Shown here piece after piece: positions 6,701-25,450 of a stretch of 32,000 bases of DNA. A program made the position numbers and the translations under genes. This DNA is from Abditibacteriota bacterium (GTDB lineage Bacteria; Armatimonadota; UBA5829): NCBI GenBank assembly GCA_942493375.1, contig OW818698.1, positions 5,494,528-5,526,527 on the forward strand, written 5' to 3'. The notes under the pieces are model-generated. The model saw only the letters and a list, made by a program, of their open reading frames with translations, was not told the DNA's origin and ran no database searches. Positions within the stretch are counted from its first letter, which is position 1. Every line of letters begins with the position of its first letter.

Positions 6701-7201
6701 ATACAGGTAGTCATCACCTTTGCAGCCGGGTGTTTTACGCACCAGTATCTCATTGACACCGTGGATGAACTCGCTCTTTGGGATGACAAAATCATACCAG
6801 GCTATGCTGGGAGCGCTGTTCTCAGCGAAGATCGGGGCTCCTCCGTTGGTGGGATACTCGTGGATATTGCCGTTTATGACTATCTGGTACGATTCATCCA
6901 GCCCGTTGACCGCAGGGAGGTCGTGCCAGGAGTAGTCTCGCACCATGAAATAGACCGATAAGCGCACATCTGAGGCTGCATCCCACGTGGCTGCGGGGAT
7001 ATCGCTGGTGTCAAGGATCTTCCGGGCGGTGTAGTCACCTGTGCTCATGTGGGTGATTCCATTAGTCATCCCACCCCATCCCCCGGTGTCATCCCGGACT
7101 TCCAGAACTCCCTCGCCAACACGGAAAAAGTGCGAGGGGACGGCAATAGCCGCTGAGGTAAGAGCAAGGATGACTAACATGAACAGGATAGTGCGCAACA
7201 T
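3791..7201 (-). CDS. large secreted protein, putative (beta/alpha)8 glycoside hydrolase with N-terminal beta-rich modules
   Basis: This is the longest ORF in the window. The track start TTG 7204 is immediately followed by ATG 7201. GGAGG (CCTCC at 7208-7212 on the + strand) lies 6 nt before that ATG, so 7201 is preferred. The signal peptide is MLRTILFMLVILALTSAAIAVP. The central motifs GDWHSAMADYAKW, GADGIRLDEYGH and LTTEFP are typical of glycosidase barrels. The family cannot be assigned by eye. Confidence 0.8.
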   Translation of the reverse strand: MLRTILFMLVILALTSAAIAVPSHFFRVGEGVLEVRDDTGGWGGMTNGITHMSTGDYTARKILDTSDIPAATWDAASDVRLSVYFMVRDYSWHDLPAVNGLDESYQIVINGNIHEYPTNGGAPIFAENSAPSIAWYDFVIPKSEFIHGVNEILVRKTPGCKGDDYLYLGIDNSEKRGNSSVAFDGKTWTQEMLTIPGGNGEYLIRLYVLEKPTSFEARWRPDKSSATDDPCGFFIYTGGRDLKPQSDGLSLAAGQSARVEWAAENLDMLQPVTATVEATGTVKIQWINRDGTAAKDIPASMGVDINLPAMRSFQPSGLLITATDTPVVVQSVKVTGSRSYHPLPPAINLTPAVKVVKAPPALQPVCKINDREITLAGGQLRAKFQSSNRLRLTSLYNMVTRTEMIHDPAACALFLVEVNGKRYSGSREFKITSIKPSTNGFVAQLDMSSPALRGLLTVNMTNEGLRMGFSLTNTGKQSTDFKLAFPHLASLAISPQIKDDYYFFPAGGGIIADTSASIRRGYGEYEALYQVMDLYSPALGGGLSIRTDDKNGWHKILALRKHIPGAFDSNQEELTMLVKPEYKCEPAALDIVDGTAFTYEYLRRTRKPGASFTPATAVLTAHTGDWHSAMADYAKWAHSVWKFRPYPSKLKSVRNMMATGWATDYLFKDGKYRTDFIQPNTDCIELMSWWDWSPLGPFGTPFDQLEKVLSPAKTKEWEPYFVNDPVTGKKMWNNQPGDYLGYNERFGGLPAFQAAIKKYKSMGSLTTLYTDFFRMDFTSKIGLAHGKEWGVINKDDKLSTEYDVYNPCHDLPEVREWVAKTTGRVMRETGADGIRLDEYGHRGWACYNPSHKHSYAEFGVTQWNKAVSETIKMVHRGMDKVRPGLVLTTEFPAFDYMMQYLDGCITYDLTGQKSPLRPLECNLQRFYFPECKAYELDHMNVDVNSHKKFWNAVESFGRYYPDNMYTILNENENVYQGRDNYALLPTLQNYLYCNRFRGEGKTIYHLYNAMGHTFEGEALKLDTSLRDTHVVNLLTCQELPVIYGKVSLYMERNDVACVAVLSKTISMKRSGNALQVSMKSPGKVSELVISDVNGKQLLKQKAKAGAQTLDLTGLLNPVCVKLLNNGQLVDAVGIVE

Positions 7202-7398
7202 CAACTACCTCCAGGATATGTGACCAGCAATCTATATGGTGCACTAGTTCGCCGTTCCAGGCACGGACACCTTCTATATAGGATTCGTTTCGTGTTTTGG
7301 CATTTGGTAAAGTGAATCAATCTCAGATTGTCCTGATGTTATTGATAGCAGGGGATTATGCTCTGGTAAAGGTAATTGAGAAGAGTGAATGTATATTC

Positions 7399-7785
7399 CT
7401 AGATGGATGGTCGCAGGATTTCCTGGTCATTTACACAGTTGGTTATCTTGGTCAGTTCAATCTCAACTGAAGACTTGAGCGGTATCTCGGTATAGTTTGC
7501 GTCTTGTTTAGTGTGGAAAATTATAGTCTCAGCCAGCGGTGCAACGCGACTTAATAACGTATTTATATCTGATGAAGATATTTCCGGAATGGCCCAATAA
7601 ATGACGCTGTTCTCTGTGTCAAAAATCGTACATTCATGATCGTCAGTCTCTACTTTTAGTGGACTGATACATATGCTTTCTGCAAGTAGATCCAGTTTAA
7701 TTGCGCATGGCAGCAAGCTGCCTCCCACGACTAACTCCTTATCAGATTCTATGTATTGGATTACCACGGTGGAATCCTTTCTCAA
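7399..7785 (-). CDS. hypothetical small acidic protein (coding status uncertain)
   Basis: The 128-codon ORF starts at TTG 7785 with no Shine-Dalgarno sequence. An in-frame GTG at 7728 follows AAGGAG with a 6-nt spacer and would give about 109 aa. No domain is recognised, and the flanks are AT-rich. Confidence 0.35.
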   Translation of the reverse strand: MRKDSTVVIQYIESDKELVVGGSLLPCAIKLDLLAESICISPLKVETDDHECTIFDTENSVIYWAIPEISSSDINTLLSRVAPLAETIIFHTKQDANYTEIPLKSSVEIELTKITNCVNDQEILRPSI

Positions 7786-8092
7786 TCAATTAACGTCTAC
7801 CTGATAATTAGCATTATTCATGTGCAATCCGAGTCTGTCTTGGCAGTGTAGCCCATAAATTCTCTATTGTCAAGAGCAAGTCGACTGGTTTTGTTGAGTT
7901 GAGCTTAACAATCCGTAAAAACTGGTAATTATGCTGGGAATGAATAGTATCACGAAGTATGAATCATAAAATGGGGAGTCTCGATTGAATGTGTGATATA
8001 CTTCACTTATAAGCCCGCTGTAGTATAGGGCTGCCTTTGTGCAGTTTAGTATTACAACGGGTTGTTTCTTGCATATCCTGTAGCTTGTTTTC

Positions 8093-9475
8093 TTGAAGAG
8101 GGATGAGGCTTTGTCTATTACACTTAAGAACAGGAAAAAGACCGTCATTATCATAGTAGCCATTATCCTGAGCATACTAACGTATGTATGGCCATTTGCT
8201 CGCATTCTTCTGCCAGGTTGGGTTTCGTATTCGAGGGAGACCAAGAGGCTAAATAGACAGATAGCTGCAATCAGGGCAAAAGGTGAACCTGTTTATGCAA
8301 ATGAATTGTATGGCAAATCCGTCCCTGATAATTTTAATGCCGCAGTCTCTATTGAACCGGTACTTAAGGTCGTATCCGAAAAAGCAGTCAAAGCGGATCT
8401 CAACAAAATACGCCGATACACCGGTCGTTATACTAATAATGAAGCTCCACTGACTGCTGGAGACTTGGTTGAGTTTGAACGCCTGACCAATAAATATAGC
8501 TATCTACTCCCCCAGATTAAAAAGGCTGCATCCAAGCCTCTTTGCAGATATAAAGTGGAGTGGGAAAAGACAGTTGCAGCTTCATTACCCCATTTAGCTA
8601 AGCTCCGGAATATAAATGGTCTAATTATGGCAAAAGCGATCTGCGAAGCCAGACAAGGGAACATGAAGGCTTCAGCGGATTATATTTCATTGAGCGTTTC
8701 CTTAGGTAACACCTTAAGAAACGAACCAGGGATGATATCTCAACTGGTCAGATATACCCTGCTGCATATGACAGCAAATGGACTTAAGGGAATATTGAAA
8801 GAAGGGCACATCAGTCCTGTTACGGCAAATAAAATTATACTTTCTCTAAATAAGGGTGAGATATCGGATAGCTATAGAACAGCTCTAATAGGAGAACGTG
8901 CAACATGCATCACCTTAATAGACGATACAGTAGCCAGACGAATTGTGATTGATAATGCTGATGCTGGACCGAAAGGTGCTTTTATGAGACTAGTACCTAA
9001 TTTTATAGCATATTTAAGAGCAAATGAGAACGAGATAATATCCTATTGCACAAAACAGTTAGAATCTACAAACAAGCCATATCGGGAATTTATGCCAGCT
9101 GACTTCATTTTTCCCGCCAGTAGTACATCAAAAGGTATGTTTACTTCCCTGTGCTCGATATATCCGAAGATTGTTGGACGCCGGGATACGGTCACTGCCA
9201 CACTCAATGGTTCAATCATCGCCGTCTCCCTTAATAGCTACAAGACCCAGTTTGGGCAATATCCACCCAGTCTGGCTACTCTAAGCAAGAAAACAGGCAA
9301 AAAACTTCCACTTGACCCATTCAGTGGTAAGAGTTTTATCTACAAACCCAAAGCCAACGGTTATCTGCTATATAGTATCGCCGTGGATTTAAAAGACAGC
9401 AGAGGAATAGAACTCCCAAAAGGTGCCAAAGCTGAAAAGACCCCTCATGATATTGTATGGCGGATGGATGAGTAG
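8093..9475 (+). CDS. membrane-anchored protein with GspG/PulG-like C-terminal motif
   Basis: The start is TTG 8093 (no SD) or in-frame TTG 8111 (AGAGGGA 7 nt upstream). A basic N-terminus is followed by one TM helix (TVIIIVAIILSILTYVWPF) and a long helical region. The C-terminus LPLDPFSGKSFIYKPKANGYLLYSIAVDLKD follows the DPxG..Y.Y...Y.L.S.G.D pattern of type II secretion pseudopilin C-termini. Confidence 0.7.
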   Translation: MKRDEALSITLKNRKKTVIIIVAIILSILTYVWPFARILLPGWVSYSRETKRLNRQIAAIRAKGEPVYANELYGKSVPDNFNAAVSIEPVLKVVSEKAVKADLNKIRRYTGRYTNNEAPLTAGDLVEFERLTNKYSYLLPQIKKAASKPLCRYKVEWEKTVAASLPHLAKLRNINGLIMAKAICEARQGNMKASADYISLSVSLGNTLRNEPGMISQLVRYTLLHMTANGLKGILKEGHISPVTANKIILSLNKGEISDSYRTALIGERATCITLIDDTVARRIVIDNADAGPKGAFMRLVPNFIAYLRANENEIISYCTKQLESTNKPYREFMPADFIFPASSTSKGMFTSLCSIYPKIVGRRDTVTATLNGSIIAVSLNSYKTQFGQYPPSLATLSKKTGKKLPLDPFSGKSFIYKPKANGYLLYSIAVDLKDSRGIELPKGAKAEKTPHDIVWRMDE

Positions 9476-9618
9476 GCAATTAGCACTTATCTTGATTTTA
9501 TATTAATATACCGCAAGTCCTATGTTTTCCTCCACTACTCTAGAAAACCATAATACTTCCAGTTAATCAATATTTCTCAAATGGATGTTAACGAAATGGT
9601 GTGATATCGAGTCTATAT

Positions 9619-9631
9619 TAACTGTTGCAAA
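9619..9631 (+). promoter_or_regulatory. 13-mer TAACTGTTGCAAA, 54 nt upstream of pseudopilin gene 1 (copy 1 of 2)
   Basis: An identical 13-mer occurs at 20888-20900, 55 nt upstream of the second DUF1559 gene. Both copies are on the coding strand. Confidence 0.4.
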
Positions 9632-9685
9632 GTCTTATGCAAAGTTTCATTTAAGTTTTGCAGCAAAAATATTAGGAGGAAAAAG

Positions 9686-10399
9686 ATGCAAGCGAGAAAA
9701 GGTTTCACTCTAATTGAACTATTGGTTGTTATAGCAATTATAGCTATATTGGCAGCCATCCTGTTCCCGGTTTTCGCAAAAGCACGGGAAAAGGCAAGAC
9801 AATCCACATGTGCCAGTAACTTGAAACAGATTGGTCTAGCTTACACTTCGTATGAACAGGACTATGATGAGCGTCTTCCGGGTAACCAGTTTAACTTGAA
9901 TGCTGCAGACACTACATCTAAGTATGTGATGAAGTGTGGTATCAGGATTCAGTTCTGGCCTCAGTATCTGGAACCATACATCAAAAGTGCTGGAGTGTAT
10001 GAATGTCCCAGCGGTTTGACCGCAGCTTGTGGATCACTACCCAGCACTCCCCGCAGTTATGCTGTAAATGTCACTTTAGTGGGTTGCTGCGGAGGTGATG
10101 GGTCTGGAACCGACAATCGTGGCCAAAAAGTGGCAGATATAACCAAACCTTCCGAAACAGTCCTTATGGCCGACGGTGGTGTGCACTTCCTGTTTGGAGC
10201 GAATGGTGGATCCTCTTTTGGTTGGTATACCGGTACCCCCCCTGTAGACGCACCCTCTGGATCTCCAACCTGGGGAGATTCCTGGAAATGGATAGCCAAT
10301 AGACACAACGATGGAGCCAACGTGCTTTGGGCCGACGGACATGTGAAATGGGCGAAACAAAAAACCCTGACATACGTTAGCTTCTTTGCAGCACAGTAG
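9686..10399 (+). CDS. prepilin-type N-terminal cleavage/methylation domain protein, H-X9-DG (DUF1559) family
   Basis: AGGAGGA (9674-9680) precedes ATG 9686. The class III signal is MQARKG|[24 protein letters not shown], with Glu at +5. The C-terminal segment [14 protein letters not shown] matches H-X9-DG exactly. Confidence 0.9.
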
Positions 10400-10421
10400 T
10401 CATAATCCGTGATATAGCAAT

Positions 10422-10442
10422 GCCTCCAGCAATGCTGGAGGC
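10422..10442 (+). terminator. 9-bp hairpin downstream of pseudopilin gene 1
   Basis: The stem is GCCTCCAGC (10422-10430), loop AAT, GCTGGAGGC (10434-10442). It starts 23 nt after the stop at 10399. No T-run follows. Confidence 0.3.
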
Positions 10443-10843
10443 TCCTCGAAATCCACTGAGCCATCCGCATGTTCTTCTATGCAGGCTCCTTCACAGGCTC
10501 CAGAATCTCCGACCAGCTCAAACCAACCGATCTCATCGTACGTGACAATCCGAATACCTCCCCCCGTAGCCCATTCCATCGTAAATGGATGGGTGCTGCT
10601 ACGGAAGCATCGACAGTAACACTAGATGAAATCAACCTACGCAGGGCGGTTTAACCCGAGTGCACGAGTCAGAATTGTTAGCGGGATTTCGCCCAGCACC
10701 AATATCCCGTGCTTTTATCATACAGTTTCAATTGCCTACTACGTATAAATATATACATAACCGGCTCTTGATGTGGAATATACGTAATGCGAGAATCCGC
10801 TGAGTTAAATCCTCCACTGAATATATGATTTCGGGAGATACTA

Positions 10844-12940
10844 TTGAATAACTGCTTTTGCGATATCCGATCCAGGGTGATCTACACCATTGGAGTCCTC
10901 CTACTGCTGGTTTTTTTCTGGCTGCTGCCGGTTGTGGCTGAGGTAACTGACAAAACAGATGCAATTGAACTCAGGAATACAAGTTATGACTTGACTCAAC
11001 TGAGTATTGAGGACTTAATGAATGTTGAGGTTGAAATCACTCTTGCATCCAGGAAACCAGAAAGGCTTTTCGACACTACATCAGCTACATATGTTATCTC
11101 TCATGAGGACATTCAACGATCAGGTATTACTAATATTCCCGATCTGCTTCGCATGGTTCCCGGTATGCAGGTGGACAATATCAATTCAAATTCCAGAACA
11201 GTTACTTGCAGGGGTTTAGGGAACCGGTTTGGAAATAAATTGCTGGTGTTGTTTGACGGAAGGAGTGTATATGCAACAACACTGGGAGGGGTATGGTGGG
11301 ATGTACAAGACACCACACTCATGGATATAGAGCGTATTGAAATCATTCGCGGCCCCGGAGCTACTATGTGGGGGGCAAACGCGGTCAATGGTGTTATCAA
11401 TATCATCTCCAGACACAGCGAGGCGACACAAGGTTCCGCCATCTCTCAGACCATCGGATCACAAGATAAATCTAACACGGAGGTCAGATATGGTGGGAGA
11501 CTGGACGAAAATGGCACATATAGAATCTTCGGCAAGAATTTCAACCGTGGTGGTTCCATTACTCAATCCGGAGCCAAAGCGCACGATTCCTGGTATCATA
11601 ACCGCAGTGGGTTCCGGGTAGACTTGAATCCATCAACAAATGACTCAGTAGCAATACAGGGACAGGCTTATCAGGGACGATATGGCACGACCGACGAGGC
11701 TCTTACACTTAGTCCTCCATACATTCGAATAGTTGAGGATATGGGTAATGTCACCGGAGGTGATCTGCAGGCAGAGTGGACTCATCGCATATCACAGAAG
11801 TCAAGTACCAATTTGCTCTTCTATTGTGATAAGTCAGAACACAAGGATTGGCGAATCGACGACAGCAATGAGTCTTGGAATATCGATTTTAGTCACCGAT
11901 TTTCGGTTGGCGACAGGCACGATATTGTTTGGGGTATCGGTTATCGTACGGTTGACGGCACTGCTAAAGATGGAGTTCTACTCAACTTCAACCCAGACAA
12001 CCACACTGACCAATTGTACAGTGCGTTTTTGCAGGACGATATTGTAATCAAGAAAGATAAATTCAAACTGACACTGGGTTCGAAATTTGAACACAACACT
12101 TACACAGGTATTGAGCTGCAACCAAGTGCCAGGGTTCTGTGGACTCCTGATAAACAGCATGCAATCTGGGCTGCTGTGTCCCGTGCTGTCAGAACGCCAA
12201 GCTGGCTTGAAAGATACGGCCAGATAAATGTCAATGCAGTACCGGGTCCTATGGGACTGCCATTAGTATCTGCGTTGATTGGAGATCCGGATTTCGATTC
12301 GGAACGATTGACTGCCTACGAAACCGGATATCGTGTACAGACCAACAATCATTTGCAATTCGATGTCGCCGCATTCTATAACGTATACGATGGCGTGCAG
12401 GCCGGAGTCGCTCATCCTGAGAACATATATCCTGTTGGATCTCCTCCGCAGTACCTAATCCTCCCAATCACATTCGTGAATGGGGGGCGATTAAGGAGTT
12501 ACGGAGCTGAGTTAGCAGTCACCTGGAAGCCTGCACAGTGGTGGAGAGTATCTGGCTGGTATACTAGTCTACATGTAAATTCGGAGCGAGGACTCCCATC
12601 CAGCGATTCATCAATAGCAATGTATGACAGAGCATATCCACGTAGTCAGTTCCACATACGTTCATATATGGACTTACCCAACAATCTGAGTTTCGACGCG
12701 CTGCTCTACTATGATGGATCAAAATCGACTGGGAATGCCTTTACCACATTGCCCAATATCAGCAGTTACACAAGGCTTGATCTCAGACTTGGTTGGACAC
12801 CAAAACCAAACCAGGAGTTTAGTATCGGAATACAGAATGCGCTGGATTCCCGTCATGTAGAATACACAACACGTATTTCTGAGTTGCCTACTCTCGTGGA
12901 ACGTACTTTTTATGCACGTGCAGTTTGGAGTACATTATGA
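10844..12940 (+). CDS. TonB-dependent outer-membrane receptor
   Basis: GGGAGA (10833-10838) lies 5 nt before TTG 10844. The signal peptide ends LLPVVA|EV. Plug-domain motifs are DLLRMVPGMQV, VLFDGRSVY and IERIEIIRGPGATMWGANAVNGVINII. A remainder of about 500 aa resembles a beta-barrel. The stop overlaps the next start (ATGA). Confidence 0.9.
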   Translation: MNNCFCDIRSRVIYTIGVLLLLVFFWLLPVVAEVTDKTDAIELRNTSYDLTQLSIEDLMNVEVEITLASRKPERLFDTTSATYVISHEDIQRSGITNIPDLLRMVPGMQVDNINSNSRTVTCRGLGNRFGNKLLVLFDGRSVYATTLGGVWWDVQDTTLMDIERIEIIRGPGATMWGANAVNGVINIISRHSEATQGSAISQTIGSQDKSNTEVRYGGRLDENGTYRIFGKNFNRGGSITQSGAKAHDSWYHNRSGFRVDLNPSTNDSVAIQGQAYQGRYGTTDEALTLSPPYIRIVEDMGNVTGGDLQAEWTHRISQKSSTNLLFYCDKSEHKDWRIDDSNESWNIDFSHRFSVGDRHDIVWGIGYRTVDGTAKDGVLLNFNPDNHTDQLYSAFLQDDIVIKKDKFKLTLGSKFEHNTYTGIELQPSARVLWTPDKQHAIWAAVSRAVRTPSWLERYGQINVNAVPGPMGLPLVSALIGDPDFDSERLTAYETGYRVQTNNHLQFDVAAFYNVYDGVQAGVAHPENIYPVGSPPQYLILPITFVNGGRLRSYGAELAVTWKPAQWWRVSGWYTSLHVNSERGLPSSDSSIAMYDRAYPRSQFHIRSYMDLPNNLSFDALLYYDGSKSTGNAFTTLPNISSYTRLDLRLGWTPKPNQEFSIGIQNALDSRHVEYTTRISELPTLVERTFYARAVWSTL

Positions 12941-13572
12941 ATACATACAACCAACTGCATTATAGTGCCGGAGTTTCAAGAGATGAGTTGCAGATTACTG
13001 CTCTCTCATTCCGAAGTACAATAGCAGCCAGAGTAGGAGCAATCCTTCTCACTGTGTTAATGATTGGCATACTGGTGGCAGCTGTGTGTGCTCCAGCTTC
13101 CGGTTCCTCTGAATATGAGGTTAAGGCAGCATTCATATACAACTTTGCAAAGTTTGTAGACTGGCCGGATGAGGTATTCGGAAATGCGTTATCGCCCATA
13201 ATTATCGGCGTTCTGGGTTCGGATTCCATGTGCGACATACTGGAACAAACGGTTGCGAACAAAACTGCAAATGGCAGGAAGCTGTCCGTCAAACGTGTAA
13301 GTCGCATTCAAGACTTGAGCAACTGCAACATAGTGTTCATCAGTAGATCGTGGAGTAGAAGCACTAACGAGATATTAGAATCGACAAAGGGATCAAGCAT
13401 ATTGACCATCGGTGAAACAGAGGGGTTTGCCAAGCACGGCGGGATCATTAACTTCGTGATGAATGATCGGAAGGTTGGTTTTGAGATAAATGTCGATATA
13501 GCAAAGCGAGAATCTATAAAGATAAGTTCCAAACTCCTCAGTCTAGCTAAAATTGTTAAGGACAACAAGTAG
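12937..13572 (+). CDS. YfiR-like periplasmic protein (DUF4154)
   Basis: ATG 12937 overlaps the receptor stop (ATGA) and follows GGAG (12927-12930) by 6 nt. Alternative starts are TTG 12925 (track) and TTG 12988. A hydrophobic export segment is followed by [19 protein letters not shown]. Later come ILTIGE..GF..HGGIINF and KISSKLL, which I recognise as the YfiR/DUF4154 signature. Confidence 0.85.
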
Positions 13573-16336
13573 AGTGGGTTACTTTCGCAGATACTCATTT
13601 AGGAAAAAGCTAACTATAGTTATGATGCTTACAAGCGGAGTCGCACTACTGCTGGCGTGTGCTGCTTTCATGACATATGAATGGTGTACCTATCGACGGG
13701 CTACTGTTGTCGATCTAGCAACACTTGCCAAAATCACTGGAGACAACAGTGCAGCTGCACTTACATTTGGCGATAGCCTTGCCGCCATTGATAATCTGTC
13801 GAAACTGCACACTCAGCCGCATATAGTAGCTGCTTGCCTCTATACATTGAAAGGCGACTTGTTTGCCCGATATGTTTCCAAACAAGCAGAAAACAGACCC
13901 GCTCGTAGAAGAGAACAGGAGCAAGCTGCCAGTAAGGATAAAGGACATCTATCGGTATTCCGTAACGTCAAACTGGACCACAAGAATATTGGTTCAATCT
14001 ATATAGAAGCCGACACCAGCTCAATGAATATAAGGTTGAAACGATATGCAGGAATTATGCTCGGGGTTGTTTTACTATCTTCTCTGGCAGCATTCCTGAT
14101 GTCAGCGTTCCTGGAGCGAGTGATCTCCAAGCCAATCGTTAAGCTTGCTGATATGGCCAAGAGCATATCAGCCAACAGAGATTATTCAATCAGAGCATCA
14201 AAGACAAGTGAAGACGAAATTGGCTGGCTGATAGATGGGTTTAATGAGATGTTGTCAGAGATCCAGAAGCGGGATATGGACCTTCGCGAAGCTATTATCC
14301 GTGCGAATGAAATGGCAGAGAAAGCAGAAGCAGCGAACTATGCCAAGAGTCAGTTCCTCGCAAATATGAGTCATGAGATCAGAACACCCCTCAATGGGGT
14401 TATCGGGACATCCGGTTTACTACTTGGCAGCGAGTTGGATCATACGCAGCGCCGCTATGTGGACATAATTCGCAGCAGTGGTGAGGCGCTGCTTTCAGTA
14501 ATCAACGACATACTGGACTTCTCCAAAATAGAAGCTAAAAAACTGCAGATCGAAAGCATTGATTTTGATCTGTATGCCATGATAGAGAAATTTTCAGAAA
14601 CTATGGCTCTACGGGCTCAGGAAAAGGGCCTTGAATTGATATTTAACATACACCCTGATACTCCAAGGTTGTTAATAGGGGATCCGAACCGGATTCGACA
14701 GATAATGACAAACCTTGTGGGTAATGCGATTAAGTTTACTGCAAGAGGCGAGATTACAGTTAATGTAATCTCTGAGCCACCGCGAAACAACAAGGAAATC
14801 ATCAAGATTGAGGTACAAGATACCGGCATAGGAATGTCAAACCAGAATCAGGTGAGCATCCTTGAGCCATTTACTCAGGCAGATGGATCCATAACCCGGA
14901 AATACGGTGGTACTGGTCTTGGACTTGCGATATCAAAGCAACTCACTGAGATGATGGGTGGTAAGTTTGGTTATGAGAGCAAGATTGGATTGGGTTCCAC
15001 ATTTTGGTTCACTGTGGCGCTGAGCACACAACACGGTGATATAACATATAAGCTGCCGAGAGCTGATACCGAAACAATCGGATCCGCCAGTATTATCATA
15101 GCAGACGCCAGCGAAACCAACCGACTGGTTCTCAAATGTATTCTTGACAGCTGGGGCATCACGAACGAAGCTGTCGGGACTGCCGAAGAATTGATGAAGC
15201 GACTGGTGAGTAACGATCAGAAAGGAACTCCATACCAGGTTGCAATCATCGATGTACATTTGCCTGACACAGAAATTGTCGAAATATCCAGACGAATCAG
15301 ATCTAATGAAGCCACACAATCGATGGGACTCATTGCAATGGTCCACCTGGTTGAGTTGAATGAATCTGAACAGTATACTCAGGCAGGTTTCAACTGCTGT
15401 TTGTCTAAACCAATAGGACGTTCAACGCTTTATGACAGTATAGTTGCGGTAATCCATCCAGACATACACATAGATGAGCTATCCGGGAGAGTAGGCAGAG
15501 ATTGCAGCTCCAGGCCGAAATCCGAGAACCAAAGGTTCAAGATTCTACTGGCAGAGGATAACGTGACCAATCAAATGGTCGCCGAGGCAATACTGGAGTC
15601 ACTTGGCTACCCCATGGATATCGTAGAGAATGGTGCGGATGCCATTAGATCTCTGGGTGAGAAAGACTACGATCTAGTCCTAATGGACTGCCAGATGCCG
15701 GTTTTAGATGGTTATGCAGCGACTGCCAGAATACGTGCAGATGGCTCTGGAGTCAGGAATCCTGCAATCCCTATAATCGCTCTAACAGCAAATGCCATGG
15801 AAAGTGACAAACGTCAATGCTACGAAGCAGGCATGGACGATTATCTTTCAAAGCCTGTGACAGCGGAAGCTATTGCGGCTGCGCTGAGTAAATGGCTTGT
15901 ATATGATGAAAACATATACGTACCGGAAATTCCGGGTATAGCATCCGATTCACAATGCAATGATTATAAGTCAGAGCAAATACTATCGCCTTCACCAGAA
16001 GATTCTACTTTACCTGTATTCGATGAAGGGGCATTACTGGCACGTATTGGCGGTAATGAAGCGCTGGCTGGAAGAATTGTAATAAAATACCTGAATGATG
16101 TTCCCAAACGTATTAGCTTGTTGAAAGAATCTATCATGAGCAACGATCTACCGGAAGCACGGCTGCAGGCACACACAATAAAAGGCAGTTCCAGAAATGT
16201 AGGAGCAGAATCACTGGGAGAAGCAGCGGAAATATTGGAGAAAGCTTGTATTGCCGAAGATACAGGCTCATTAGCGGAGTTGACTCAGCAGATGGAGACG
16301 CGTTTTGAAGAGCTGAAAATCCGTCTGGCAGCATAA
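13553..16336 (+). CDS. hybrid sensor histidine kinase (2 TM periplasmic sensor-HAMP-HisKA-HATPase-REC-REC-Hpt)
   Basis: The start is TTG 13553 (overlapping the upstream stop) or GTG 13574. Domain order as read:
- TM1 ([20 protein letters not shown]).
- A periplasmic segment of about 130 aa.
- TM2 ([19 protein letters not shown]).
- A HAMP-like linker.
- H-box [13 protein letters not shown] (His codon 14372-14374).
- ATPase boxes [16 protein letters not shown] and [13 protein letters not shown].
- Receiver 1.
- Receiver 2 ([19 protein letters not shown]).
- Hpt ([11 protein letters not shown], His codon 16172-16174). Confidence 0.95.
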
Positions 16337-16416
16337 AACATTACTGACTGAGGATCTGGATACTATATTAATCAGCAAAGCGCAGCATTTTTTACAGATA
16401 AGAATAGGTGTAGAAA

Positions 16417-17463
16417 TTGAGAATATTAGGCGTAGATGACGACGATATAGCACTGGACATTCTAGAGGCTGCAATATCAGCTGATGGACATGAACTTATC
16501 CGTGCAGCTAATGGACTGGCGGCACTAAATATACTACAGCACGAACGAATTCAGATGGTTATCTCTGACTGGATGATGCCGGGAATAAGTGGAATCGATC
16601 TGGCAAATAAAGTGCGTGAAATAAATACCGGCCGGTACACATACTTTATACTACTAACATCACGAACAGAGAAATCCGACATTCTGGATGGGCTGAATGC
16701 TGGTGCTGACGATTTTATTATCAAACCATTCGATCCGGTAGAACTCAGATTACGCCTCAAAGTGGGCCAGAGAGTACTCGCACTAGAAACGCATCAGCTG
16801 ACGATTTTTGCACTCGCGCAACTCGCAGACACTCGCGATAACGAGACCGGCAATCATCTCTTGCGTATACGTGAATACTCATATCTGTTGGCGCAGCATC
16901 TCGTTGATTCATTTAAAACGGAATACAAGTTGCCCGGGGACTATGCAGAACTAATATATCTGACAAGTCCTCTGCACGATATAGGTAAGGTGGGGATACC
17001 TGATTGTGTATTGCTTAAACCAGGAAGGCTGGATGATTCGGAGTTCGCGATAATGAAAACACATGCATATTTGGGTGGGCAAACTCTATCTGCAGCTCTT
17101 CAGCACTTCCCGGAAGCAGCGTATTTGCAGATGGCTAGTGATATAGCAATGTATCACCATGAACGATTTGATGGTAAAGGATACCCAAATGGACTCAAAG
17201 GTGAAGCCATACCCTTGTGCGCCAGGTTAGTCAGTGTGGCAGATGTCTATGATGCACTGGTATCCCGTAGGGTATATAAGCAGGCGTTTACTCATGAAAT
17301 AGCACGCAGTATTCTGGTAGATGGATCCGGAACTCAATTCGACAGCACGATAGTGGATGCTTTCATGGCCAATGAGAAGAATTTCGAGGCAATAGCACTC
17401 CAGTATGCTGACGTTCCTCCTGCAATAAACTCATCTGAATCAGGGGAAAGGAAGTATGCTTAA
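16417..17463 (+). CDS. response regulator with HD-GYP domain (predicted c-di-GMP phosphodiesterase, RpfG-like)
   Basis: AGGTG (16406-16410) lies 6 nt before TTG 16417. The receiver motifs are GVDDDD, MVISDWMMPG and IIKP. The HD-GYP motifs are HDIGKVGIPD (HD codons 16975-16980) and HHERFDGKGYPNGL (GYP codons 17179-17187). Confidence 0.95.
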   Translation: MRILGVDDDDIALDILEAAISADGHELIRAANGLAALNILQHERIQMVISDWMMPGISGIDLANKVREINTGRYTYFILLTSRTEKSDILDGLNAGADDFIIKPFDPVELRLRLKVGQRVLALETHQLTIFALAQLADTRDNETGNHLLRIREYSYLLAQHLVDSFKTEYKLPGDYAELIYLTSPLHDIGKVGIPDCVLLKPGRLDDSEFAIMKTHAYLGGQTLSAALQHFPEAAYLQMASDIAMYHHERFDGKGYPNGLKGEAIPLCARLVSVADVYDALVSRRVYKQAFTHEIARSILVDGSGTQFDSTIVDAFMANEKNFEAIALQYADVPPAINSSESGERKYA

Positions 17464-20955: not shown

Positions 20956-21657
20956 TTGAAAAAGAAATCTGGATTCACACTTATTGAGTTGTTAGTTGTT
21001 ATTGCAATAATAGCTATACTAGCAGCAATCCTGTTCCCCGTATTTGCAAAAGCCAGGGAAAAGGCCAGACAGACAAATTGTATGAATAACTTGAAAAGTT
21101 TAGGCACTGCAATAATGATGTATTCACAGGACTATGATGAACTGTACCCGTTTGCCTATCTTGATACAACATATCTGGCTGGTGGCACAGCTACAAACTG
21201 GTATGGCAATTTGCAGCCATATATCAAAAATACCCAGATCTATCTATGCCCCAGCGCTCCTACTCAGGATCCGTATATAGGCAACTATAGTTCAAACAGA
21301 GGATTAATGCCATATCACCACGCTGGAAATCAGGTTCCGGCAATCTCAACCGCTTCAGTATCTGCTCCAGCAGAGATATACGCCATATTTGATGGCAGTT
21401 ATTTCTCATTAGCAAATACCGACCTTGCCCTGTGTGGAGCTTATCAAGCCTGGTTACCAGGAAGTGGACAAGTGAGCGGCATAGCCTGGCAGGGAGATGG
21501 TAACACTGCAAAACAAGCGGACTATAAAAATGGTCGCCACAGCGAAGGTGTAAACATGGCCTTTGCAGATGGACACGTGAAATTCCTCAAATCCGCAGTA
21601 GTCTGGAACGCCAAAGATCTGGGGATTAAGAATCCTTTCAATCCTACGACCTGGTAG
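20956..21657 (+). CDS. prepilin-type N-terminal cleavage/methylation domain protein, H-X9-DG (DUF1559) family
   Basis: GGAGA (20945-20949) precedes TTG 20956. The signal is MKKKSG|[24 protein letters not shown]. The C-terminal segment HSEGVNMAFADGHV matches H-X9-DG. A strong hairpin follows the stop. Confidence 0.9.
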   Translation: MKKKSGFTLIELLVVIAIIAILAAILFPVFAKAREKARQTNCMNNLKSLGTAIMMYSQDYDELYPFAYLDTTYLAGGTATNWYGNLQPYIKNTQIYLCPSAPTQDPYIGNYSSNRGLMPYHHAGNQVPAISTASVSAPAEIYAIFDGSYFSLANTDLALCGAYQAWLPGSGQVSGIAWQGDGNTAKQADYKNGRHSEGVNMAFADGHVKFLKSAVVWNAKDLGIKNPFNPTTW

Positions 21658-21906: not shown

Positions 21907-22638
21907 ATGCCTGTGTATGAACCACAGAAAACTAGTTGGAAATGGTGGCAGATTCTAGCTGCTAGTTGTGGCGGGATCATTCTCATTTTAGCGTGCACTA
22001 TAATCATTGGGTCTATCTACCTCACTAGACAGATCAGTAGGCATGTCTCCGGTATTATGTCGGGAACACCTCCCAAAAAGAATTCAACACCATATACAAT
22101 TTCTTCAGGTAGTGGTTTCTCAGAGTGCTCCCTGATTCTACCATCTGGATTCAACAAACTTACCTATTACTATTCCCTACCGAATCCATACGGAAAGTGG
22201 GGGGAAAGAAGTATCAAGATTACCGATAAATCCGGTAAGTCTCAGGAATGGCCTTTACCACAGTGTAAAATAAAGAATCTTAAGGTTGGTATCTATTGGT
22301 ATGAGGCAAAAAACGGAGTAGGACCTTTCATACGTTTTTATGATCCAGGTGAGAGTGCGGTCCTGGACCTGAAAAAACGTGAAGTAGGCGGGCTTTTCAA
22401 GATCAAAAGCTCGTATGTCGTTGCTGATTATGCATATAATGATACCAGTTTCTACTGGTGCACAAGGATCACGGATTCTTCAGGAAATCTATCTATAACT
22501 GATGCCCATGGAAATCCAGCAAGGAATGTATCCTCCGTCATCAACTCCGCAAATAGCACTTACCTGGGCACAATTGTTATATATGGAAATAAACTGGTCC
22601 TTATAAACAATCAAACCAGCACAGCTAAAGGCCATTAG
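21907..22638 (+). CDS. single-pass membrane protein with beta-rich C-terminal domain, function unknown
   Basis: GGGAGA (21893-21898) lies 8 nt before ATG 21907. A sigma70-like promoter lies upstream. The TM helix is WWQILAASCGGIILILACTIIIGSIYL. More basic residues follow the helix (TRQISRH..PPKK) than precede it. No domain is recognised. Confidence 0.6.
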   Translation: MPVYEPQKTSWKWWQILAASCGGIILILACTIIIGSIYLTRQISRHVSGIMSGTPPKKNSTPYTISSGSGFSECSLILPSGFNKLTYYYSLPNPYGKWGERSIKITDKSGKSQEWPLPQCKIKNLKVGIYWYEAKNGVGPFIRFYDPGESAVLDLKKREVGGLFKIKSSYVVADYAYNDTSFYWCTRITDSSGNLSITDAHGNPARNVSSVINSANSTYLGTIVIYGNKLVLINNQTSTAKGH

Positions 22639-22826
22639 CGTTACCAACGCAGACTCCAGCGAGTCCGGATTCGGCAGTTGTATTTCACTGAACTACTGAA
22701 AAAATGATGATGCTTTATCTGGGGGAATGGGACATTACCCGGGAACGCCAATCTCCGCATTGGCATTTCTATGACCAATTGAGGTCTCGATGGTCTGGAT
22801 CATCAATGATGCAGACCTGATTCCCT

Positions 22827-22840
22827 GGACATCCATGTCC
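22827..22840. promoter_or_regulatory. palindrome GGACAT-CC-ATGTCC upstream of the TIR gene
   Basis: The 6-bp arms are read directly from the sequence. The palindrome lies about 110-135 nt upstream of the candidate TIR starts. Its function is unknown. Confidence 0.2.
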
Positions 22841-22950
22841 ATCAGCATACACAAACAGTTCTTATAACTGCTATCGATTGGTGAAGGGGGGGATGGATGT
22901 CCGCGAGATTGTGCTAGGGTCATGGATCATCTGGGTAATCTAGAAACAGA

Positions 22951-24447
22951 TTGTATTTCAACCGAGGTGATATTTTGTTATACGATGTATTCATATCTCA
23001 TGCAAGCGAAGACAAGGACGAGTTCGTTCGTCCGCTTGCGGAGGCTTTACAACGAAATCGTATTAAGGTTTGGTATGACGAATTCAGCTTAACCGTCGGT
23101 GATAGCCTACGTAGGTCTATCGATATTGGTTTGGCAAAATCTACCTATGGCATAATAGTCCTCAGTAAGAACTTCATGAACAAGAACTGGTCACAATGGG
23201 AATTGGATGGATTGGTTCAACGACAAATTGGGGAATCGAGAAAAGTCTTGCTGCCGATCTGGCACAATGTGACTCAGAACGAGGTAATGGAGTTTTCTCC
23301 GCCTCTTGCGGATAAACTTGCGATTTCAAGTGGAATTGGCTTGGACTGCGTTGTAGCCAAATTACTCAAGGTGCTGAGACCTGAAGGATCTACTTTAATA
23401 ATCGCACGAGATGAATTGCTGGATCTCGGATATGAAGTGCCGGTTATCACCGATGACTGGTGGCTAGATATGGTTGAATTCTCCGCTTCCAATGATATGG
23501 AAGGCACATTTCAAGAGGCTATGGGCTGGGGATACTGGGGGTTTCCGCTTCCACCCAAGACTGAAAAGCCGTCTGACAGAGGTCATAGATTGGCGATGTC
23601 AGTGGCACAAAACTTCTGGCAGGAGAGGGCTGCTGATCTTCGAATCAGCCAGGTTACTCATCCAAATGAAGTAATGGACTTTATACAATCTACACCCGCT
23701 ATGGAGGATGTTTGTTGTGAGAATATAAATTATCTTATCGCATATGCTCCACAATTGACTATACGTGGTTTTGGGGGACCATTTGAAGATATCATTGAAT
23801 CGGTATATCTACAGTCAGTATGTAAATGTGGGCAGAAACGCGAGAAGCATCTCAGTAATGGAACTGGCCTGACAATAAATGGATTACCTCCGGCTTGCGG
23901 TGAAAACATAGCATTGCGACACCCCACTTTTGGAGACTATGGCGCTTCGTTTATTGCATGTGACTTTGTTCAAGGTGATATATTTGGTCCACCAGTAAAA
24001 GTATTTGCAGAGGTGGATTATGCTGCATGGTTGATATCAGATAAAAGCATATGGATGCCATCAGCAACGCGACAGTATCTAATTGATGGTATTGGGGAAT
24101 GGGGTGTATGGCCTTGGGTTGACAATAGAGTGCCAGACATTTATGACTTGGAACGATGCGAACCGTGGCCACATATGGGCGATTTAGTGCATGCAATAAT
24201 GGACTTCTGTGGGAGAAAAATAGTCGCGAACAATGTATTTACGGTGACTAGTAATCTATTAGATGATATCCAATATCGTCTGGAATATTCACGTCGACTA
24301 CTGGGTATTGATGACGACACGGAAGTATTAACTCGCCGATTTCTTGCGTCAGGTATTATCGAAAGGACATTACTGGACCGCGAATCAAATGATATAAAGC
24401 AGTCTCCAGATCATATGCGACCTGTTGTGGTTCTACAAACTGAATAA
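22951..24447 (+). CDS. TIR-domain protein with ~350-aa uncharacterised Trp/Cys-rich C-terminal domain
   Basis: TIR motifs are YDVFISHASEDKDEFV, IKVWYDEFSLTVGDSL, and GIIVLSKNFMNKNWSQWELDGL with the conserved Glu at 23200-23202. The track start is TTG 22951. The in-frame TTG 22975 follows GAGGTGA (22964-22970) by 4 nt and gives the typical MLYDVFISH N-terminus. The C-terminal region (DDWWLDMVEF, GWGYWGFPLPP, GEWGVWPWVDN) is not recognised. Confidence 0.9.
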   Translation: MYFNRGDILLYDVFISHASEDKDEFVRPLAEALQRNRIKVWYDEFSLTVGDSLRRSIDIGLAKSTYGIIVLSKNFMNKNWSQWELDGLVQRQIGESRKVLLPIWHNVTQNEVMEFSPPLADKLAISSGIGLDCVVAKLLKVLRPEGSTLIIARDELLDLGYEVPVITDDWWLDMVEFSASNDMEGTFQEAMGWGYWGFPLPPKTEKPSDRGHRLAMSVAQNFWQERAADLRISQVTHPNEVMDFIQSTPAMEDVCCENINYLIAYAPQLTIRGFGGPFEDIIESVYLQSVCKCGQKREKHLSNGTGLTINGLPPACGENIALRHPTFGDYGASFIACDFVQGDIFGPPVKVFAEVDYAAWLISDKSIWMPSATRQYLIDGIGEWGVWPWVDNRVPDIYDLERCEPWPHMGDLVHAIMDFCGRKIVANNVFTVTSNLLDDIQYRLEYSRRLLGIDDDTEVLTRRFLASGIIERTLLDRESNDIKQSPDHMRPVVVLQTE

Positions 24448-24791: not shown

Positions 24792-25241
24792 ATGAAGCTC
24801 AGAATATATCTCGATACGTCTGTCATTAGCGCCTACTTTGATGACAGGGCCCTAGATAGAATGGCTGAAACCAGGATGTTCTGGTTGAGGTTGCCAGAGT
24901 TTCAGGTTTCGACCTCTGTGCTAGTCCATCAAGAGATTGTACAGACGATAGATTCAGTTAAGCGCCAGCAAATGCTGGAGTTACTGAGTAAATCTCATCA
25001 AATGGATGTGACTCCTGAAGCGCACGATTTGGCGCAAGCGTATGTTGACCGAGGATTGTTTACATCAACAATGTATGCTGATGCTTTACATCTCGCTCTA
25101 TCAGTACTTACGCGTCAGGATATCCTGGTATCGTGGAATTTCAAGCATTTAGTTAACAGGCGAAAGCGTGCAGAAGTGATTCGGGTGAACACCGTTCTAG
25201 ACTTACCTGCGATAGAGATATTGTCACCACCGGAACTGTGA
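24792..25241 (+). CDS. PIN-domain ribonuclease (VapC-like toxin)
   Basis: The acidic PIN residues are in the usual order: IYLDTSV (Asp codon 24813), HQEIV, YADALHLA and VSWNFKHLV. GGAGAG lies 9 nt before ATG 24792. A TATAAT box sits at 24717-24722. Confidence 0.85.
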   Translation: MKLRIYLDTSVISAYFDDRALDRMAETRMFWLRLPEFQVSTSVLVHQEIVQTIDSVKRQQMLELLSKSHQMDVTPEAHDLAQAYVDRGLFTSTMYADALHLALSVLTRQDILVSWNFKHLVNRRKRAEVIRVNTVLDLPAIEILSPPEL

Positions 25242-25450
25242 GGTATTGGGCAATGAAGTATTTTGATTATGAACAAACAGCCAACGAGGCAGGAATATCA
25301 GAGCTGGATTTGCAGTCGATAATCCAAGCAATGTGCAGTGAGTTTCCGGATGATGATATGATGAGGGAACTCCATGTGCTAAGGGTGTGTATAGCAGTCA
25401 GGGATGGCAGAGTTGCATTAAATGATGTTCTAGACAGTCTGGCTGCATAG
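25238..25450 (+). CDS. small acidic protein overlapping the PIN gene stop, possible HTH partner/antitoxin
   Basis: GTG 25238 overlaps the PIN stop (GTGA). Alternatively, ATG 25253 lies 9 nt after GAGG (25240-25243). The segment YEQTANEAGISELDLQSII resembles a helix-turn-helix. The product is 65-70 aa. Confidence 0.5.
   Translation: MRYWAMKYFDYEQTANEAGISELDLQSIIQAMCSEFPDDDMMRELHVLRVCIAVRDGRVALNDVLDSLAA

Follow-up and report, generated by a model that had tools for sequence, protein, structure and literature searches.

In a 32,000-nucleotide stretch of DNA from an Abditibacteriota bacterium (assembly GCA_942493375.1, contig OW818698.1, positions 5,494,528 to 5,526,527 of the forward strand; the whole stretch is called the window below), we analysed a gene at 22951..24447 (+) that encodes a TIR domain joined to a C-terminal domain of about 355 residues. 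An earlier note on this DNA, made from the letters alone, had put the gene forward as a candidate defence or abortive-infection protein that consumes nicotinamide adenine dinucleotide (NAD+).

In the six-frame list of open reading frames (ORFs), the gene is an intact ORF of 498 codons opening at a TTG codon. The TTG at 22975 is more likely to be the biological start, giving a coding sequence of 490 residues plus a stop codon (22975..24447, +). This start is favoured because the Shine-Dalgarno sequence GAGGTG can be read at 22964..22969 (+), 5 nt before the codon, because the identical database protein (P0001) is 490 residues long and because the N-termini of 40 homologues line up at MLYDVFI. 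Residues are numbered here on the 490-residue protein; the numbering of the earlier note is higher by 8. According to the ORF map, the intergenic spacer upstream of the gene (22639..22974, +) measures 312 nt up to the first TTG and 336 nt up to the likely start, in agreement with the 5' region of more than 300 nt reported before. It is otherwise featureless: it has no Rfam match at E≤0.1, its promoter and terminator matches do not exceed the shuffled background, and the ribosome-binding site is the only element that can be recognised in it.

The TIR head and the orphan C-terminal domain

Residues 1-135 (22975..23379, +) constitute a TIR domain of the clade formed by AbTir, BtTir, PdTir and TcpB, as judged by Pfam, by a family profile compared with all sequences of the Protein Data Bank (PDB), by Foldseek and by residue alignment. 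Its identity to these 2'cADPR-forming TIRs is about 53-55%. Pfam TIR_2 (PF13676) was matched over residues 13-108 (E 2.2e-19, 70.6 bits for a cut-off of 28) and Pfam TIR (PF01582) over residues 11-113 (E 5.3e-12, 46.3 bits for a cut-off of 21.3). With the family profile, which aligned over residues 3-135, the top match was AbTir (7uwg, E 2.5e-58; 8g83, E 5.1e-58), followed by BtTir (7uxr, E 7e-56), PdTir (3h16, E 5e-55) and TcpB/BtpA (4lzp, 4c7m and 4lqc, E 2e-49 to 1.5e-48). The full-length protein was modelled with AlphaFold2 (mean predicted local distance difference test score (pLDDT) 85.4, predicted template-modelling score (pTM) 0.73). Foldseek comparison of this model with 7uxr, 3h16, 4lqc and 8g83 gave template-modelling (TM) scores of 0.69-0.93, normalised by target length, with root-mean-square deviations of 1.5-4.4 Å and 44-55% identity. 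As modelled, the head is a flavodoxin-like beta-alpha TIR fold, superposable on solved TIR domains, and the earlier assignment of the first ~145 residues to a TIR domain is borne out.

The roles of individual AbTir residues in catalysis, cyclisation and filament assembly rest on mutagenesis or cryo-electron microscopy (10.1101/2022.05.07.491051). E208 is catalytic and the E208A mutant is dead, W204 stacks on the base and is needed for cyclisation to 2' cyclic adenosine diphosphate ribose (2'cADPR), K202 contacts the diphosphate, W227 contacts the adenine from the neighbouring TIR, and the BB-loop mutants G174A and S176A are inactive or very weakly active (10.1101/2022.05.07.491051). On alignment with 7uwg and 8g83, the BB loop G42-D43-S44-L45 (23098..23109, +) corresponds to G174-D175-S176-L177 of AbTir. 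The WxxxE motif of helix alphaC, W72-S-Q-W-E76 (23188..23202, +), supplies the counterparts of W204 (W72) and E208 (E76), while K70 aligns with K202 and W96 with W227. In a 40-sequence family alignment, G42, K70, W72, E76 and W96 are invariant, and D43, S44 and L45 are at least 90% conserved. E76 (E84 in the 498-residue numbering) is encoded by codon 23200-23202, and it is this glutamate that had been named as catalytic; both its alignment with E208 and its invariance in the 40 homologues speak for that choice.

Since all the active-site and BB-loop residues of AbTir are kept, the head is equipped with all that is known to be required for NAD+ cleavage, for cyclisation of adenosine diphosphate ribose (ADPR) and for assembly through the BE interface. 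It is probably an active NAD-cleaving enzyme. Membership of the clade of 7uwg, 8g83, 7uxr, 3h16, 4c7m, 4lqc and 4lzp and the residues shared with it suggest that it probably has the same chemistry (NAD+ converted to nicotinamide and ADPR or 2'cADPR) and the same requirement for the BE interface.

As the closest solved TIR domains include TcpB/BtpA from Brucella, we considered a secreted virulence factor, that is, a Tcp-like mimic of Toll-like receptor signalling, or a polymorphic inter-bacterial toxin. This seems very improbable. The hosts of the family are free-living, no conserved immunity gene adjoins the gene, and the TIR is N-terminal instead of forming a C-terminal toxin tip. Furthermore, no secretion or toxin-delivery domain and no transmembrane segment was found in the protein, signal peptides not having been specifically searched for.

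For the C-terminal part, the search results were of another kind. When the full protein was compared with Pfam, PADLOC and NCBIfam, all matches were confined to the TIR and the C-terminal part had none. Sixteen trimmed C-terminal domains compared with Pfam yielded two single-member matches and nothing else, to Tryp_alpha_amyl (E 0.095) and DUF3472 (E 0.15), each in 1 of the 16 members and rejected as chance. The profile of the domain found nothing significant among PDB sequences, the best match (DCoH, E 0.38) being discarded as chance, and had no match in PHROGs. Since the Foldseek matches of the full-length model all came from the TIR, the C-terminal ~355 residues were re-modelled alone with the family alignment (pLDDT 86.7, pTM 0.87, 209 residues at 90 or above) and searched again. 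The resulting model comprises about 16 helices and essentially no strands, and is non-repetitive. Foldseek returned no match at E≤0.001 from the PDB (best E 1.1, TM below 0.2) and none from the viral structures of BFVD (best E 0.7). PP2A B56, CRM1 and prenyl synthases were rejected as fold relatives (E above 1, TM below 0.2), as was a reading in terms of TPR, HEAT or ARM repeats (hhalign between thirds of the domain, probability at most 1%).

Relative to solved (PDB) and viral (BFVD) structures, the C-terminal domain as modelled is thus an orphan fold. The earlier note had been unable to place these ~350 residues, and neither Pfam, NCBIfam, PADLOC and PHROGs nor the structure search then envisaged, run by Foldseek on the AlphaFold2 model, supplied a relative or a characterised family. 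Its statement that this region lacks a P-loop or NTPase also holds: there is no Walker A motif in the protein sequence and no NTPase match in Pfam, and a hydrophobic span of transmembrane strength is likewise missing from the sequence. The literature search found no published description of the domain or of its fusion to a TIR. No library or paper searched describes either of them, and what is new is an orphan-fold partner on the known design of a single-protein TIR NADase.

The four motifs quoted from this region are all present: DDWWLDMVEF at 23452-23481, GWGYWGFPLPP at 23524-23556, CKCGQKREKH at 23821-23850 and GEWGVWPWVDN at 24094-24126. Its description as rich in Trp and Cys was half right. 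The Trp content is a family-wide property (3.1% here, 3.8% on average in the family), whereas the Cys content is not (2.3% here, 1.4% in the family).

The 40-sequence alignment was also used to follow conservation along the protein, expressed as mean pairwise identity. The TIR (residues 1-135) stands at 66% and residues 136-275 at 60%. The latter stretch opens with a linker, PxGSTLxIAR (residues 136-154, 23380..23436, +), in which P136, G138, S139, L141 and A144 are invariant and residues 140-150 are modelled as a helix. It is followed by a first conserved core (residues 155-275, 23437..23799, +) containing TDDWW, GWGxWGFPLP, RGxRLA and YAPQLxIxGF...E, where pLDDT is mostly 90-98 and where D160, W162, W163, W188, F190-P193, G203, R205, Q226, P230, F236, C247, Y257-Q260 and E271 are invariant. 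In the protein of the window, Y replaces the usual R of GWG(R)WGF. A second conserved core (residues 311-380, 23905..24114, +), with RHPxFG, FVQG, GPPV, IDYxxWLLSxxSxW and GxxxWxxW, reaches 55% and has G334, Y349, S355, S358, G372 and W379 invariant.

Two hypervariable segments are found in this domain. The first (residues 276-310, 23800..23904, +; identity 40%, minimum 13%) holds CKCGQKREKH, which is not conserved across the family. A zinc-finger reading of this motif was rejected, the segment being hypervariable, with C247 the only invariant cysteine and C308 near-invariant. Some relatives carry insertions at this place, visible as matches in two stretches with a break near profile positions 142-159. 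The second segment (residues 381-425, 24115..24249, +; identity 30%, minimum 8%) is a low-confidence loop with pLDDT blocks of 53-75. Both coincide with low-pLDDT loops and with insertion points in relatives. The protein ends with C-terminal helices (residues 426-470) and a tail (residues 471-490), together at 24250..24444 (+), the modelled helices spanning residues 426-443, 449-458 and 461-474. R435 is invariant, and the identity over residues 426-470 is 38%. The tail is rich in K and R and net positive in 35 of the 40 members; that of the window protein (24385-24444) is neutral to acidic, with a net charge of -2. A conserved scaffold bearing two hypervariable loops is a pattern that fits a recognition module.

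Relatives of the protein and their genomic neighbours

In order to describe the family, a word-indexed search and an exhaustive HMMER search were used. The former gave more than 100 full-length relatives (~450-520 residues, 46-58% identity) from sources that include Mycolicibacterium, Kribbella, Paucidesulfovibrio, Desulfuromusa and Kineosporiaceae, annotated solely as 'TIR domain-containing protein'. The latter, in which the C-terminal domain profile was compared with 1.84 billion representatives, gave 307 proteins at E≤0.001, and the architecture was inspected for the best 150 of these. Among them, most full-length matches have their start near residue 136, that is, they consist of the TIR and the domain. 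Outliers were examined by Pfam scan and sequence inspection. P0127, P0148, P0254 and P0169 are long and still contain the TIR, which is N-extended in P0127, while the shorter matches begin within the TIR (ILPIWH...), are fragments at contig ends or are split genes. The domain was not found on another effector, nor as an independent family, among these best 150 of 307. The expectation that the TIR head might be swapped for other effectors was consequently not upheld: every listed and inspected match has this TIR, whether complete, truncated or split.

Some copies of the gene are interrupted. At two loci (L049:85-1439 and L050:85-1439), an ORF of 110 residues encoding the TIR precedes one of 318 residues encoding the C-terminal domain. 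The split, which is the same in both of these independent samples, lies beside a MazE/PemK toxin-antitoxin pair and represents either a pseudogene or a true two-gene form. At three of the 34 loci described below (L031, L039 and L040, all from metagenome-assembled genomes (MAGs)), two overlapping ORFs take the place of the intact gene, as might result from a frameshift that made a pseudogene or from sequencing errors in the MAGs.

A pattern scan of 185,579 species, with one genome per species, confirmed 34 loci. The hosts belong to Chloroflexota (Dehalococcoidia), Actinomycetota, Acidobacteriota, Bacillota, Desulfobacterota, Spirochaetia, Cloacimonadota, Melainabacteria and Verrucomicrobiota, with a spread of about 10 phyla in all, and are free-living bacteria of soil, sediment and subsurface, together with MAGs. 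Such a rare and phyletically patchy occurrence is as expected of a horizontally moving accessory gene. Phage records contained no copy (0 of 50,697), nor did IMG/VR, and plasmids contributed one record, Caulobacter henricii pCB4 (NZ_CP013003.1). On pCB4 (L043:8596-11532), the copy is divergent, with 34% identity over the first 244 residues of the C-terminal domain. The next gene, at +1 nt, encodes a hypothetical protein of 525 residues with an N-terminus, VMIASPGDVIAERQ, that by eye resembles a TIR or DUF4062; this protein has no PDB sequence match and is absent from the other loci examined.

The neighbours of the gene were then compared by all-versus-all BLASTP of 702 ORFs from 42 loci and the window. 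No neighbour family is common to independent loci. The sole cluster present at several loci comes from 5 of them, and its position and strand vary relative to the TIR gene; in the pairwise comparison of upstream neighbours, none was shared. Since no neighbour is shared, the gene is a single-gene unit, as had been proposed.

The same observation bears on a Thoeris-like scheme in which the protein is a sensor whose diffusible cyclic ADPR (cADPR) isomer activates an unlinked receptor encoded elsewhere in the genome. Besides the lack of a conserved neighbour, there is a precedent in SpbK, which makes N1-cADPR without a linked receptor and whose authors place any receptor elsewhere in the genome (PMC12847820). 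Mobile defence genes, however, normally travel with their effector, and a spread over about 10 phyla without a linked partner is simpler to explain by a self-sufficient protein. We regard this scheme as quite improbable.

To describe the defence context, ORFs within 2.5 kb of the gene (near set, 147 ORFs) and ORFs 5.5-10 kb away (far set) were scanned; both sets derive from naive ORF calling, which is unreliable in high-GC genomes. In the near set, PADLOC matched mad3 (1e-56), mad2, AbiEii (6e-40), AriA, GajA (1e-124), DarG (7e-98), DpdF (1e-125), TmtA (6e-301) and PDC-S02, among which the systems MADS, AbiE, PARIS, Gabija and DarTG are represented. Pfam matches in this set included the mobile or defence families IstB_IS21, rve, Phage_integrase and AbiEii/AAA_21, and also the housekeeping families LpxB, PrmA, topoisomerase and peroxiredoxins. 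At individual loci, the neighbours are two ParE modules, an HNH protein and a giant NOV_C protein (L003), HEPN_AbiU2 and PDDEXK (L005), GmrSD and MNT-HEPN (L044), SduA_C (Shedu), HicAB, Abi_alpha and an ImmA-like protein (L045), MazEF (L049) and a transposase (L001). The far set also holds a CBASS cyclase and DRT reverse transcriptases according to PADLOC. As defence genes occur there too, the islands extend that far and the far set is not a clean control.

The proposal that homologues lie in defence loci was therefore borne out in part: defence, toxin-antitoxin and mobile neighbours are frequent, but some copies sit among housekeeping genes. An example is a Logan contig (SRR21358205, L046) on which mutS occupies 5413-7992, the TIR gene 8001-9425 and mutL 9422-11272. 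The start of mutL overlaps the stop of the TIR gene by 4 nt, and the latter is apparently co-operonic with mismatch repair, an unusual home for an abortive-infection candidate.

Loci inside housekeeping operons, such as mutS-TIR-mutL, favour a role outside defence, in which the protein would be a signal generator or NAD+ modulator acting in the decapping of NAD-capped RNA or in stress or dormancy control, its helical domain and basic tail binding RNA or a cellular partner. The K/R-rich tail of 35 of the 40 members and the absence from phages and near-absence from plasmids point in the same direction, and AbTir-clade TIRs are reported to strip nicotinamide from NAD-capped RNA (PMC10937652). On the other hand, a patchy distribution over about 10 phyla (34 of 185,579 species) argues against a core cellular function, and defence, toxin-antitoxin and insertion-sequence neighbours recur. 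Moreover, the basic tail is missing from the window protein, and no RNA-binding domain was detected by the Pfam scans. On balance, a non-defence role is rather unlikely.

Proposed function

The reading that we favour, with a probability of about 0.45, is that of a one-protein abortive-infection NADase in which the orphan domain gates the self-assembly of the TIR. In TIRs of the AbTir clade, SARM1, plants and SpbK, two TIRs assembled through the BE interface enclose the active site between them; at rest, TIR proteins are non-productive monomers or symmetric dimers, and activation consists of induced clustering (10.1101/2022.05.07.491051, PMC12847820). On this model, we infer an enzymatic activity and its product, a regulatory role of the orphan domain, a trigger and an anti-phage outcome, as follows. 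In uninfected cells, the orphan domain, acting through the structured linker helix, would block TIR assembly. A trigger, which may be a protein or complex of the phage or else a ligand associated with infection, would bind the orphan domain, so that the TIRs are clustered or released. The head would become active when at least two TIRs pack head-to-tail via the BB loop (BE interface) and form a composite active site. The products would be nicotinamide and ADPR; because the cyclisation Trp is conserved, a cADPR isomer would probably be formed as well, 2'cADPR being the product of the clade. The collapse of NAD+ would then arrest the infected cell. The hypervariable surface segments (residues 276-310 and 381-425) are candidate specificity determinants, and the conserved core rich in Trp, Gly and Pro may serve as a transducing scaffold or as a ligand pocket.

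The precedent for this scheme is SpbK of Bacillus subtilis ICEBs1, in which a helical, non-enzymatic sensor domain and a TIR NADase dependent on self-association are combined in one polypeptide without a linked effector, and which is switched on when the YonE phage portal clusters it (PMC12847820). SpbK has a 94-residue N-terminal four-helix bundle, a C-terminal TIR and N1-cADPR as product, whereas here the order is opposite and the domain comprises 355 residues. The likeness is functional and architectural: the two domains were not compared directly, and the orphan domain has neither a significant Foldseek match in the PDB nor a match to PDB sequences. By analogy, SpbK is most plausibly the best functional counterpart.

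Other proteins share parts of this design. SARM1 (ARM-SAM-TIR) has an all-alpha regulatory domain that, in cis, holds the TIR NADase off until the ligand changes. It differs in having a SAM domain and ARM repeats and in the opposite order of its parts, while the orphan domain is without a significant structural match in the PDB, without repeats and without SAM. The activation of SARM1 has been cited as conceptually similar to that of SpbK (PMC12847820).

The TIR-APAZ protein of SPARTA resembles the present one in its size (~450 residues), its N-terminal TIR, its larger C-terminal non-catalytic domain and its depletion of NAD+. However, TIR-APAZ chains (8fex, 8sp0, 8qlo and others) align to residues 4-70 alone and PADLOC Aga_TIR to residues 13-80 alone, the orphan-domain model finds no APAZ structure, and a short Argonaute gene is neither adjacent nor conserved across the family. 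TIR-STAND, Avs and TIR-NLR proteins differ by a P-loop NTPase (NACHT or NB-ARC), which was not found here, PADLOC TIR-NLR covering residues 13-86 alone. Likewise, the SAVED, STING and cNMP domains of CBASS and Pycsar TIR effectors were not found by Pfam, and a conserved cyclase neighbour is absent; PADLOC SAVED_TIR matches residues 12-113 alone and the TIR-STING chain 6wt6 aligns with the TIR alone.

AbTir-type proteins themselves are of ~270-300 residues, with an N-terminal non-TIR region and a C-terminal TIR, whereas here an N-terminal TIR precedes the 355-residue orphan domain. Correspondingly, PADLOC PDC-S66 (E 5.6e-62) matches through the TIR alone, over model positions 149-279 of 282. 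Because the architecture does not agree, the protein is not of the AbTir/PDC-S66 type.

Thoeris ThsB proteins (types I-XI) likewise contain a TIR that may make a cADPR-isomer signal, while here no effector gene, thsA or other, is adjacent. Pfam ThsB_TIR reached 13.7 bits for a cut-off of 21.2 and NCBIfam ThcB4 19.8 bits for a cut-off of 220. PADLOC ThsB1 PDLC00417 matches the TIR (E 2e-44), again through the TIR alone, over model positions 166-283 of 303. A systematic survey of Thoeris in 2025 discarded stand-alone TIR proteins, so that the present family falls outside it.

The ThsB1 match leads to a variant of Thoeris fused in one chain. The TIR would sense infection and make a cADPR-isomer signal as ThsB does, and the orphan domain, instead of being a sensor, would bind this signal as effector or receptor and bring growth to a halt. 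The head belongs to a 2'cADPR-forming clade and keeps the cyclisation Trp. TIR and orphan domain occur strictly 1:1, which, together with the highly conserved core, suits a ligand pocket adapted to the enzyme in the same chain; nor is there a linked gene for a separate effector. In addition, 2'cADPR is a bacterial immune signal read by DUF6650, the effector of type VI Thoeris, whose function was previously unknown (10.64898/2025.12.03.692087). Against this, the orphan domain displays no nuclease, protease, NADase, pore-forming or transmembrane feature, it is unlike DUF6650 or known Thoeris effectors in Pfam and PADLOC, and a producer and a receiver in one chain would require an additional control step. 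This arrangement is in our opinion unlikely. The wider claim that the orphan domain is a new fold acting as a built-in receptor or effector, or as a switch under small-molecule control, for the cADPR isomer of its own TIR, and thus that a one-chain pathway forms a new defence family over about 10 phyla, is distinctly doubtful.

Returning to the gated abortive-infection NADase, several observations weigh against it. The core is 55-60% identical across phyla, which is unusually conserved for a sensor of phage proteins; with such conservation, a small-molecule pocket, an enzyme or an effector fits at least as well. No swapping of effectors was seen, which sets the family apart from the usual modular sensors of defence. 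Phage and prophage collections have no member of the family, and plasmids have a single record. The defence association is qualitative, as the far set likewise has PADLOC matches and some PADLOC models match housekeeping paralogues. Finally, several loci are housekeeping-like, among them the mutS/mutL locus, one with globin and cation-efflux genes and the window itself.

The original interpretation as a defence protein is thereby retained in part. The TIR, the catalytic Glu, the orphan domain and the solo gene agree with it, but heads are not swapped and the window is not a defence island. Rare, scattered over many phyla and often found among defence and mobile genes, the gene is a credible candidate for a new single-gene anti-phage system, and the link of the family to defence is circumstantial.

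Single-protein TIR NADases recur in immunity (SpbK, TIR-APAZ, TIR-SAVED, SARM1 and plant TIR receptors), and what each of them detects is set by the domain attached to the TIR. Among the matches inspected, the orphan domain was found with one TIR lineage alone, the AbTir clade that forms 2'cADPR. Should it prove to be a sensor, it would define a new module for trigger recognition; should it bind the product of the TIR, it would represent a new class of receptors for cADPR isomers. The practical value can be called moderate, since uncharacterised fusions of a TIR to another domain are many and this family is rare.

Surroundings of the gene in the window

In the window, the gene lies in a chromosomal region that is not a recognisable defence island. 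Its neighbours are a DUF1559 pilin-like protein, an unannotated protein of 243 residues, a PIN module and an FMN reductase; glycoside hydrolases, a TonB receptor and two-component regulators are located farther out, and the remaining neighbours gave no Pfam match. The earlier note had placed the gene in an AT-richer accessory stretch next to a PIN toxin module. The first half of this statement is weakly true, with a GC content of 0.42-0.45, but the range in the window is 0.40-0.53 and the stretch at 7-10 kb is equally low. The PIN gene was recovered at 24792-25241 (Pfam PIN, E 3.6e-5) and is the sole conflict-type neighbour found in the window.

No obvious antitoxin precedes the PIN gene. A 70-residue ORF with a GTG start (25238-25450), which has no match in Pfam or NCBIfam, overlaps its stop codon, and the two may form a reverse-order toxin-antitoxin pair. 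Directly upstream of the TIR gene and on the same strand, the 243-residue protein (21907-22638) has no match in Pfam or NCBIfam and is not conserved beside homologues elsewhere; one N-terminal hydrophobic helix can be seen in it by eye. A prepilin-type N-terminal methylation motif together with DUF1559 occurs in two proteins, at 9686-10399 and 20956-21657; this signature is typical of Planctomycetota and other bacteria of the PVC superphylum and would hint at a host of that kind. Finally, the region 13553-17463 encodes a 927-residue hybrid sensor kinase with the arrangement CHASE8-HAMP-HisKA-HATPase-REC-Hpt, followed by a REC-HD response regulator (Pfam families HD_5 and HD).

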